Shown here one piece after another: positions 1,893-2,270 of a stretch of 43,260 nt of DNA; position 1 is the first letter of the stretch, and each line of letters starts with the position of its first letter. The DNA is from Pseudomonas phage Ph_15. The notes below the pieces were generated by a model. That model saw nothing but the letters and a program-made list of their open reading frames with translations, searched no databases and had not been told where the DNA came from. A program made the translations under genes and the position numbers. The DNA lies in sequence record PV845595.1; one strand, given 5' to 3'.

Positions 1893-1937
1893 CTACCTAA
1901 CTCCTAACTAGATCAAAGTTAATTAACTACACCGGTC

Positions 1938-1965
1938 ATTCTAGTCTGACCTAGTTAGAAGTCAA
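1938..1965 (-). promoter_or_regulatory. Sigma70-like leftward promoter. Minus strand reads TTGACT (complement of 1960-1965), 16 bp spacer, TAGAAT (complement of 1938-1943).
   Basis: Read on the reverse complement. About 40 nt upstream of the first leftward gene. Confidence 0.45.
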
Positions 1966-1990
1966 GCCTAATTCTAATTAATTTCATCCT

Positions 1991-2030
1991 AATCCTGGCT
2001 AACCTTGGCTAATCCTGGCCGAGCCTGGAC
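1991..2030. repeat. Four tandem exactly-10-bp repeats with a CCTGGC core: AATCCTGGCT / AACCTTGGCT / AATCCTGGCC / GAGCCTGGAC. Candidate operator or iteron array in the divergent control region.
   Basis: Direct reading. Helical-turn phasing. The same AACCTTGGC motif recurs at 198-229 and, inverted, at 43100-43176. Confidence 0.65.
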
Positions 2031-2058
2031 TAAGGGAATGATAATTAGTTGCATTCAT

Positions 2059-2097
2059 GGGGGGCTACGGACCTTTTTGGGTCCGGGGGGAGGGGGG
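2059..2097. repeat. G-rich element: GGGGGG, then hairpin CGGACC-TTTTTG-GGTCCG (2068-2085), then GGGGGG-A-GGGGGG.
   Basis: Direct reading. Confidence 0.5.
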
Positions 2098-2270
2098 TGT
2101 ATCATATACCATCCAACAAAAATTTCTAAACTTTTCCAAATTCAAGCTCCAGGTTCTAATTCCAAGTCCTAATTATTAGCTCCAGCACCCCTGGCCCCGG
2201 CCTCCTTCTTTATATATACTATCCCTAACCCACCCTCGGCCCCCTGCGGCCCCACCTGGAGCCAGACCCC

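Follow-up and report, generated by a model that had tools for sequence, protein, structure and literature searches.

A conserved module beside the small-terminase gene of Pseudomonas phage Ph_15 is most likely a pac-like packaging site

Abstract

We describe a conserved, non-coding module of ~80 bp next to the small-terminase gene (terS) of the Pseudomonas aeruginosa podophage Ph_15, which is most likely the site at which DNA packaging starts, in the manner of a pac site. The whole stretch of DNA analysed, hereafter the window (record PV845595.1; 43,260 bp), is a complete Jamesmcgillvirus genome (PaP2/119X/PaMx41 group; family Fredfastierviridae). The module lies in region 1893-2270, the 378-bp gap between a leftward open reading frame (ORF; 1683..1892) and a rightward one (2271..2855), an arrangement that agrees with the divergent control region described in an initial annotation of this DNA. 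We interpret the region, with moderate confidence, as a composite of an early promoter, accessory repeats, a pac-like packaging site and a late promoter. Its tandem 10-bp repeats, initially proposed as an activator target for late transcription, are not, judging from the genomes compared, a conserved late-gene activator site.

Background

PaMx41 and its relatives are model phages for work on the cyclic oligonucleotide-based antiphage signaling system (CBASS) and anti-CBASS, and Cas13a is in use for their engineering. Once defined and mapped, the packaging signal and the promoters would aid packageable vectors, the reading of CBASS DNA-packaging defects and the assignment of correct genome starts family-wide.

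The first 6 kb of the window are 98.4% identical to PaP2 and 96-98% identical to fourteen other records (PaMx33, PaMx35, PaMx41, PaMx43, PaMx46, 119X, Neko, TF17 and others). Record annotations inside 1893-2270 consist of ribosome-binding sites only, with no promoter or other feature, and a scan of positions 1-3000 with the Rfam 15 covariance models gave no match in the region at E-values up to 1. Within the genus, 12 other Jamesmcgillvirus genomes were compared (13 with the window); the region varies very little among them, apart from G-run lengths, the hairpin base and the repeats of 119X and Neko. At greater distances, a search with the large terminase (TerL) returned hundreds of metagenomic relatives at 40-64% identity; seven near-complete contigs and 80 further loci were fetched, and are designated below by L numbers. 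The close-relative search of IMG/VR found PaP2 itself only, and an exact-pattern scan of the same database returned 37 loci, of which L052 is a true relative, one is PaP2 and the others are A+T-rich chance matches.

Results

The module is conserved and stays beside terS

A module profile was built from nine copies and tested on the 72 loci with at least 1 kb of sequence upstream of terL. It matched 48 of them, comprising all 15 at 50% TerL identity or above and 33 of the 57 below 50%. That ~80 bp of non-coding DNA should be recognisable at only about 40% large-terminase identity is unusual conservation. In every carrier (48/48) the module lies on the terS strand, its end a median of 766 nt before the terL start; in the window it starts 212 nt upstream of terS. 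The parts of the module in the window are as follows.

2059..2141, plus strand: the ~80-bp module, a putative pac site, over the full extent of the nhmmer profile match (E=5.7e-18 in the window)
2059..2097, plus strand: left part of the module, with G6 (2059-2064), CTA, the hairpin CGGACC/GGTCCG (2068-2085) and G6-A-G6 (2085-2097)
2100..2110, plus strand: TATCATATACC, like the TATCA-ATAG of distant relatives in the 48-module alignment, with a conserved ATCA core and a partial dyad; putative cut region
2118..2135, plus strand: AAAAATTTCTAAACTTTT, the A+T-rich motif that is best conserved in the module alignment; putative TerS recognition site

Read from left to right, the module comprises a G-rich tract or terminator hairpin with a T-run, a GC-rich spacer of ~22 nt, TATCA(T)ATA and, after 20-21 nt, AAAATTTCTAAACTTTT. 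The order in relatives is a G-rich tract, CTA, GG(A/G)CC and the T-run, then the ~22-nt GC-rich spacer, TATCA(T)ATA and AAAATTTTCTAAACTTTTT. Throughout the 48-module alignment, ATCA and CTAAAC stand a constant 20-21 nt apart. The ATCA motif is partly dyad-symmetric in many relatives, as in GGCCTAT-ATCA-ATAGGCC (L087) and GGCTCT-ATCA-AGAGCC (L137), which is the look that would be expected of a symmetric nuclease target. The hexamer TATCAT of this motif had been noted before as a nearby -10 candidate; it is present, at 2100-2105 rather than 2099-2104.

Presence of the module is independent of the direction of the upstream genes. It is carried by L016 and L018-L021, which share the window's layout of leftward small genes, a spacer and terS, and also by L015 and L017, whose upstream genes run rightward. 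At some of the loci that the profile does not match, such as L106 and L109, the same architecture is visible in diverged form. The module is also single-copy, with one profile match in the 43-kb window; AAATTTCTAAACTTTT is unique in the genome, and its lone match with three mismatches is the chance expectation.

The genome ends of a distant relative fall in the module

Outside the genus, author-determined ends exist for a single cultured relative, Polaromonas phage Tiera (43% TerL identity). According to the Tiera paper, PhageTerm was run on the reads to determine the genome ends, and annotation followed on "the rearranged genome". The record has ...CGGCTTTTTTCGAGCTGGCGCGCGCGGTCTGTATCAA at its end and TAGGCCTCCTACAGTTTCGCTAAACTTTTTATC at its start, the terminal letters being ...GGTCTGTATCAA and TAGGCCTCCTACAGTTTCGCTAAACTTTTT. 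Joined, these ends match the module profile (E=8.5e-7), and the break falls inside TATCAA|TAGG, the module's most conserved motif, equivalent to about 2104|2105 in the window. An arbitrary record start would land there with a chance of roughly 10 in 45,327 (~2e-4). Position, orientation, uniqueness and this one proxy terminus together support the placement of the module among putative pac sites.

For the genus itself, the genome announcement of phage Shea gives "terminally redundant ends" from PhageTerm, and since Jamesmcgillvirus is thus reported as terminally redundant, cohesive ends are unlikely. The genus records are circularly permuted relative to each other and include no repeat; the longest internal repeat in the window is at most 28 nt, so no terminal repeat lies within it. 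A TerL profile search against the PDB sequences gave no terminase match, and the packaging class is therefore not inferable from TerL.

The small terminase varies with the module

2271..2855, plus strand: terS, small terminase, 194 aa, with an N-terminal helix-turn-helix (residues 4-37) and the ribosome-binding site GGAG at 2257-2260

The PaMx records annotate 2271..2855 as the small terminase (the depositors' HHpred match to Sf6 gp1); terL follows at 2972, and gene order and size both fit. The initial annotation had put this helix-turn-helix product forward as a candidate regulator, a role that gives way here to that of small terminase (TerS). Its Pfam helix-turn-helix matches are weak, all of them under the curated cut-offs. 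The N-terminus, which holds the helix-turn-helix, is nonetheless the best conserved segment and the only confidently modelled one: AlphaFold gives three N-terminal helices at a predicted local distance difference test score (pLDDT) of 81-87, followed by long central helices and C-terminal strands, with a mean pLDDT of 56. The poor model is attributable to the word-index search, by which only two TerS homologues were found.

The recognition helix of TerS tracks the core of the A+T-rich motif. Helices of the form ..Y(I/V)SQL occur with T-CTAAA in 18 of 22 sequences and those of the form ..R(I/V)SQL with C-CTAAA in 16 of 18. Just two helices, those of L016 and L059, are of the ..SNL form, and both occur with GTGAA, and the two most divergent helices (L066 and L068) both occur with CAAA. 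This pattern is suggestive of putative TerS recognition of CTAAAC, and it supplies natural variants for work on TerS-DNA recognition (Q to N with CTAAA to GTGAA; Y/R with T/C).

As a separate observation, a profile of the N-terminal part of the TerS family (positions 7-52) matched PDB entry 8vd6_A ('CAP REPEAT', 185 aa) in four stretches at E=3e-8, far better than any other solved structure.

A candidate rightward promoter lies between the module and terS

2192..2220, plus strand: putative sigma-70-type promoter, with -35 TGGCCC (2192-2197), a 17-nt spacer and -10 TATACT (2215-2220)

In most relatives, the stretch from the module to terS contains a sigma-70-type promoter that points rightward, in several cases near consensus: TTGACA-17-TATAAT (L016), TTGACA-17-TATTAT (L095-L101), TTGACA-17-TAGAAT (L070) and TTGCCT-18-TATAAT (L018). 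In the window, TGGCCC-17-TATACT agrees with the consensus at 8 of 12 positions; it was missed by the standard scan and is the best rightward match between module and terS. Its -35 lies 51 nt past the module end, the distance in many relatives being 47-54 nt. Because the window promoter is equivalent in position to the near-consensus ones of relatives, the structural arm would have a host-type promoter at a conserved place, with a start predicted near 2227. No convincing rightward promoter had been recognised in the initial annotation, which listed TATACT as a candidate at about 2213; the conserved placement some 50 nt past the module changes that assessment. A factor may help this promoter, its -35 being weak in Ph_15.

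The early promoter and the leftward operon

The remaining features of the window needed here, apart from the repeats, are these.

1683..1892, minus strand: gp4, 69 aa, first gene of the leftward early operon (from the ORF list; annotated in PaMx43, PaMx41 and PaP2)
1892 to 381, minus strand: short leftward operon, gp4 to gp1 (from the ORF list)
1938..1965, minus strand: P_L1, a sigma-70-type promoter found by consensus scan, with -35 TTGACT (1965-1960), a 16-nt spacer and -10 TAGAAT (1943-1938)
1966..1988, minus strand: A+T-rich tract abutting the P_L1 -35 upstream, seen on reading the sequence and putatively UP-element-like in function
2271 to 24041, plus strand: long rightward arm, with terS (2271), terL (2972) and the portal gene first
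43047 to 24097, minus strand: leftward replication arm

With 10 of 12 positions matched, P_L1 scores higher in the consensus scan than any other sigma-70 match of the first 3.5 kb, in keeping with the good leftward promoter proposed initially. It is nearly invariant among the 12 Jamesmcgillvirus genomes and ends 46 nt upstream of the gp4 start codon; its transcription start is predicted near 1930.

The last gene of the operon, gp1 (381-1019, 212 aa), serves as an early-stage gene in PMC13160051. It belongs to a PHROG of unknown function, is without a Pfam match and is conserved across the whole phage family, with homologues in L015 (4112-4765), L017 (4410-5036) and 35 other loci. At 28 loci the homologue is on the terS strand and ends ~100-200 nt before the conserved module; at nine, including all the closest relatives with the window's layout, it is inverted and farther from the module. 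The gene constantly adjoins the putative packaging site, and the operon that holds it is inverted in the window's clade. Between gp1 and a 65-aa ORF, the spacer at 1079-1168 matches an Rfam microRNA hairpin model below threshold on each strand (E=0.012 and 0.39), which points to a long imperfect inverted repeat; in 119X a ~175-bp deletion near this place takes out the 65-aa ORF.

The G-rich block is the left third of the module

The block of a G6 run, a hairpin and two further G6 runs described in the initial annotation is present. It is not an element by itself: it forms the left third of the ~80-bp module that is conserved and tied to terS. Runs of G6 are rare, with six start positions in 43 kb, three of them at 2059, 2085 and 2092, and there is no C6 run. 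Folded as DNA, the hairpin at 2068-2085 has a free energy of -6.6 kcal/mol (z-scores of -3 to -4 relative to shuffled sequences), and the T-run (2074-2078) sits inside its loop. Run lengths vary within the genus: the first G6 may be G5 or AG5, and G6AG6 may be G6AG5, G5AG6, G8AG6 or G6AG9. The base of the hairpin (pair 2069-2084) is broken in seven genomes of the close-genus comparison (C2084 to A, T or G), and the same hairpin was found elsewhere in L091 only. The hairpin itself appears to be incidental and is not conserved.

Of 49 modules, 14 have a canonical intrinsic terminator at their left edge, one example being GCCCC-CTAGT-GGGGC-T6. Most of the remainder, the window and Tiera among them, have a G run as the 5' arm and form no hairpin before the T-run. 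No intrinsic terminator was called at 2059-2097 on either strand, the T-run being in the loop and the G runs following it. A canonical plus-strand G-quadruplex there (four G tracts of at least 3, loops of 1-12 nt) was considered and rejected, as a 14-nt loop would be needed. By regular expression, G-quadruplex motifs are found at 52-106 (plus strand) and 2223-2253 (minus strand). The latter lies in a C-rich leader just upstream of terS (CCCTAACCCACCCTCGGCCCCCTGCGGCCCC), whose template strand carries the canonical G-quadruplex motif; two short Logan contigs with this exact TerS break inside the leader, 51 and 89 nt upstream of terS.

The 10-bp repeat array is non-random and confined to the genus

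1989..2028, no strand: four 10-bp units, CTAATCCTGG / CTAACCTTGG / CTAATCCTGG / CCGAGCCTGG, defined by repeat searches and lag statistics

Four tandem repeats of exactly 10 bp had been reported at 1991-2030. The array stands; its coordinates are 1989-2028, and the last of its four units (GAGCCTGGAC) is weak. Tandem Repeats Finder gives period 10, 3.1 copies and 80% matches for 1989-2019, and a second repeat search found three 20-nt copies at 1989-2028 with spacings of 10 and 10. Comparison at a lag of 10 starting at 1989 gives 23 matches over 30 positions, which is the genome maximum over lags 5-20 and was reached by none of 200 first-order Markov genomes; the array is the strongest short-period repeat in the genome, and the initial view that the repeats are non-random holds. 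Its units are 70-80% alike, in the same orientation and one helical turn apart, so that at least three stand in phase. The predicted P_L1 start is ~60-100 nt downstream of them, and the putative packaging cut lies 75-115 nt to their right.

Conservation of the array stops at the genus. No CCTGGC repeats occur in the five metagenomic contigs with the window's layout (L016, L018-L021), and across the family repeat arrays upstream of the module are not enriched over control windows. Some lineages have arrays of their own at this position: GGTAACA in four to five copies (L021, L063), CATTCTCA in six copies at 17-nt spacing (L068) and a AGCAAGGTCAAG-type array (L015). Within the genus, the array is conserved as well as the flanking promoter in 11 of 13 genomes. 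In 119X and Neko, a ~22-bp patch, CTGGCCTAGTTGCCTGGAGA(C/T)TGG, rewrites units 2 and 3 between flanks that are ~98% identical. Four CTGG cores are retained and the total length is the same, with core spacings in 119X of ~12-14, 7-9 and 9-10 nt versus 10, 10 and 10 elsewhere. As both are viable phages, the exact phased array is dispensable. Comparison with related phages, which the initial annotation had suggested as a check, thus finds the repeats missing or broken where the flanking genes are kept, the outcome that the annotation itself had named as refuting its proposal.

A partner for the array was sought genome-wide at sites where 119X and Neko agree with each other and differ from the window and PaMx43. 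Such sites form three clusters, of which one is the array, another a hypervariable ORF (37.8-38.2 kb) and the third a low-complexity PNPNP tract in gp53 (42364..43047), the first gene of the leftward replication arm. No credible co-varying DNA-binding partner emerged from this search. The DNA of the PNPNP tract and the array (1988-1998) have the 11-mer CCTAATCCTGG in common. The tract (42944-42992, in the N-terminal coding part of this 227-aa gene) is hypervariable, derives from AGGATT repeats and is arranged differently in 119X and Neko. The hypervariable ORF (37764-38258, 139 aa) is highly divergent between window/PaMx43, 119X and Neko and is a mosaic hot spot; just past it, Neko has a ~300-bp insertion with extra small ORFs.

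Two further readings were rejected by eye: a sigma-54 reading of TGGC-N-TTGGC, for its wrong spacing, and the integration host factor (IHF) consensus, whose TTR part is missing.

Related motifs at the junction

The initial annotation linked the repeats to the junction of the window's two ends through a shared motif, and this link is confirmed. AACCTTGG occurs at 198, 211, 2001 and 23427 and CCAAGGTT at 4789, 31070 and 43102, and the 11-mer GCCAAGGTTAG is common to the array (minus strand) and 43101-43111. Across the junction (43095-43260 plus 1-240), CAAGGT-type motifs form a cluster of four on one side (43102, 43113, 43146 and 43166, plus strand) and an inverted cluster of three on the other (198, 211 and 221, minus strand). 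Clusters of CCTTG/CAAGG with a comparable strand bias are present at the junctions of L015 and L017. We consider the junction a candidate origin or early-control region. Its motif clusters in the window flank a G-rich block of TAGGGG repeats with the G-quadruplex motifs at 52-106 and a G7 run (126), and the L015 junction has a 10-bp array of its own, TAGGTCTGGT in 3.5 copies.

Discussion

Proposed organisation of the region

In the composite that we favour, a host sigma-70 promoter with its A+T-rich upstream tract (1938-1988) would drive the early operon from gp4 to gp1. The array is probably an accessory upstream element of P_L1, either a protein-binding site or a DNA-bending element whose exact form is not essential; a pacL-like accessory arm is a minor alternative. 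TerS would bind the A+T-rich CTAAAC motif through its N-terminal helix-turn-helix, and the terminase would cut in the partly symmetric ATCA motif (~2104|2105), which lies some two turns of the helix farther left, with packaging then proceeding rightward, towards terS. The sigma-70-type promoter with the weak -35 (2192-2220) would start the terS and structural transcript.

The simplest history of the arrangement is one of inversion. The ancestral gp1 operon would have run into a terminator placed just before the packaging site, of which the G-rich tract, T-run and GC-rich spacer would be a remnant or a replacement. Inversion of the operon in the window's clade would then have set P_L1, the A+T-rich tract and the array beside the module, the array having come along with the early promoter. 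The likeness of the array unit to the CCTTG/CAAGG motifs of junctions could be explained in this way.

Alternative interpretations

Several observations weigh against a pac-like reading of the module and the composite built on it. A single relative, at 43% TerL identity, supplies the evidence on termini, and the paper on that phage does not state the PhageTerm terminus class. No Jamesmcgillvirus record starts at the module; starts are at the junction, at the gp1 stop or, in FBPa48, at 1788. No metagenomic contig end falls at the cut motif. The model of TerS does not confirm its fold, given the mean pLDDT and a non-significant top Foldseek match (2ao9, E=0.37), and its co-variation with the DNA is clade-level, perhaps three independent events, such that shared ancestry could yield it. 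No partner protein for the array was found in the 119X/Neko comparison. Finally, the module is also promoter-like, leftward in close relatives (TTTAGA-18-TATGAT) and rightward in distant ones (TCAATA-18-TAAACT). With regard to ends, we also observed that the FBPa48 record (ON857941.1) starts inside gp4, 271 nt left of the module, unlike other genus records, and that by a rough tally 6 of ~21 full-length metagenomic contigs end 1.1-2.5 kb upstream of terL.

The promoter-like character of the module raises the possibility, which we think rather unlikely, that it is a transcription element, a terminator followed by a promoter, and not a packaging site. The promoter could be a second early one upstream of P_L1, for which the window offers the following candidate.

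2101..2130, minus strand: alternative or overlapping leftward sigma-70-like promoter, with TTTAGA (2130-2125), an 18-nt spacer and TATGAT (2106-2101), 9/12 matches

This match reaches at least 9/12 in 12 of the 13 closest relatives versus 5% of background windows, and is lost in distant ones. Alternatively, a rightward late promoter could be used by RNA polymerase with a phage factor, ATCA being -35-like and TAAACT -10-like, 18 nt apart; on the plus strand of distant relatives a weak TCAATA-18-TAAACT, TAAAAT or TAAATT does recur. A terminator and then a promoter is a common operon separator, the terminator is a true one in 14 of 49 relatives, and conservation across hosts would suit the universally conserved host polymerase. 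Yet neither strand has a good sigma-70 match family-wide (the mean best score is 7.4-7.5, that of the background 6.6), the stretch between module and terS already holds a rightward sigma-70 promoter of its own, often near consensus, and L015 and L017 have no leftward gene that would need a leftward promoter. Such a role would also leave unexplained both the Tiera ends inside the motif and the co-variation with the TerS helix. Transcriptional and packaging roles are not mutually exclusive, and in the window's clade the packaging site might double as an early-to-late switch, at which late TerS would silence leftward early transcription and nucleate packaging. This is conceivable because the putative cut motif TATCAT|ATA doubles as the -10 (TATGAT) of the leftward promoter and the putative TerS motif covers that promoter's -35 and UP region (TTTAGA plus GAAAAG). 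Leftward transcription through the array and P_L1 region would then be silenced, with the phased array wrapped as a pacL-like accessory left arm. We hold such a switch to be distinctly improbable.

For the array, the serious alternative, still an unlikely one, is that it has no function of its own and is a neutral tandem duplication or slippage product in the spacer made by inversion of the early operon. Its confinement to one genus, the tolerated 22-bp rewrite and the failure of the 119X/Neko allele search to yield a partner would all fit, as would other slippage-prone CTAATCC/AGGATT repeats in the genome, such as that in the gp53 coding region with the shared CCTAATCCTGG. Neutrality sits less well with the 11 of 13 genomes that keep the array as well as the flanking promoter, with the four CTGG cores and equal length in 119X and Neko, and with the unit's resemblance to CCTTG motifs clustered at the junctions of several relatives. 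That resemblance, which extends to the junctions of the window, L015 and L017, together with the exact and highly non-random phasing and the weak -35 (TGGCCC) of the rightward promoter, could be taken to favour the initial proposal that four phased CCTGGC repeats are cooperative activator or initiator sites on which a promoterless rightward arm depends. We now find this very improbable: relatives with the same genes and layout lack the array, and two of its units are rewritten and the phasing broken in the viable 119X and Neko, on which grounds it is set aside as a conserved late-gene activator site. Moreover, the family as a whole shows no enrichment of arrays upstream of the module, the whole conserved module stands in the ~165 nt between the array and the rightward -35, and the only co-varying patches are a hypervariable ORF and the PNPNP tract, neither pointing to a DNA-binding protein. 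Hardly credible, in our estimation, is a replication origin with the repeats as iterons, the A+T-rich AAAAATTTCTAAACTTTT as the unwinding element and the G block as a structural or priming signal. The anatomy is iteron-like, the A+T-rich tract has phased A and T runs, and cumulative GC skew has its minimum near 2-3 kb. The skew switch, however, falls at the switch in transcription direction and is therefore uninformative; the iteron-like part is unconserved while the remainder is conserved; and the conserved part is bound in position and orientation to terS, not to replication genes. An origin here would leave the Tiera ends unexplained, and the junction with its inverted CAAGGT clusters is the better candidate.

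Implications and comparison with known systems

A pac-like packaging site beside terS remains our preferred interpretation of the module. It offers a ready marker of genome ends for a large, mostly uncultured podophage family, and the repeat array can be struck from the list of likely late-gene activator sites.

Two component features have familiar counterparts. As in intrinsic (rho-independent) terminators, a G+C-rich hairpin followed by 5-9 T residues forms the module's left edge in 14 of 49 relatives, directly downstream of a gp1-like gene; in the window, by contrast, the 5' arm is a G run, and the hairpin that does form has the T-run in its loop and G runs after it. The array shares with the iteron or operator arrays of plasmid or phage initiators and repressors its four same-orientation units, spaced by exactly one helical turn. 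It differs in that the units are 70-80% alike, are limited to the genus, are rewritten in two of its members and have no cognate protein found.

For the module as a whole, the closest parallels are packaging sites. The pac region of the Bacillus phage SPP1 is organised as pacL-pacC-pacR at the 5' end of gene 1. Both are unique sites beside the small-terminase gene, with bent or A+T-rich DNA in the site and with a packaging-gene promoter that overlaps or adjoins. In both, putatively so for Ph_15, a cleavage point is flanked by recognition sequences for a TerS bearing an N-terminal helix-turn-helix, and a terminally redundant genome, reported for the genus of Ph_15, is likewise common to them. 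The two sites are unrelated in sequence, and the Ph_15 module has a strong recognition motif on the terS side of the cut only, its left side being a terminator-derived G-rich tract with a T-run. In phage lambda, cos is organised as cosQ-cosN-cosB immediately upstream of Nu1. The order of cut site, small-terminase binding elements and small-terminase gene would be the same in Ph_15, as would the partial two-fold symmetry and the fixed spacing. Lambda differs in its 12-nt cohesive ends and in having three R elements and an IHF site, where Ph_15 has one conserved A+T-rich motif, and no sequence relationship exists between the two. The architecture of the Ph_15 module would thus work like the terS-proximal SPP1 pac and lambda cos sites, and it is not categorically new.

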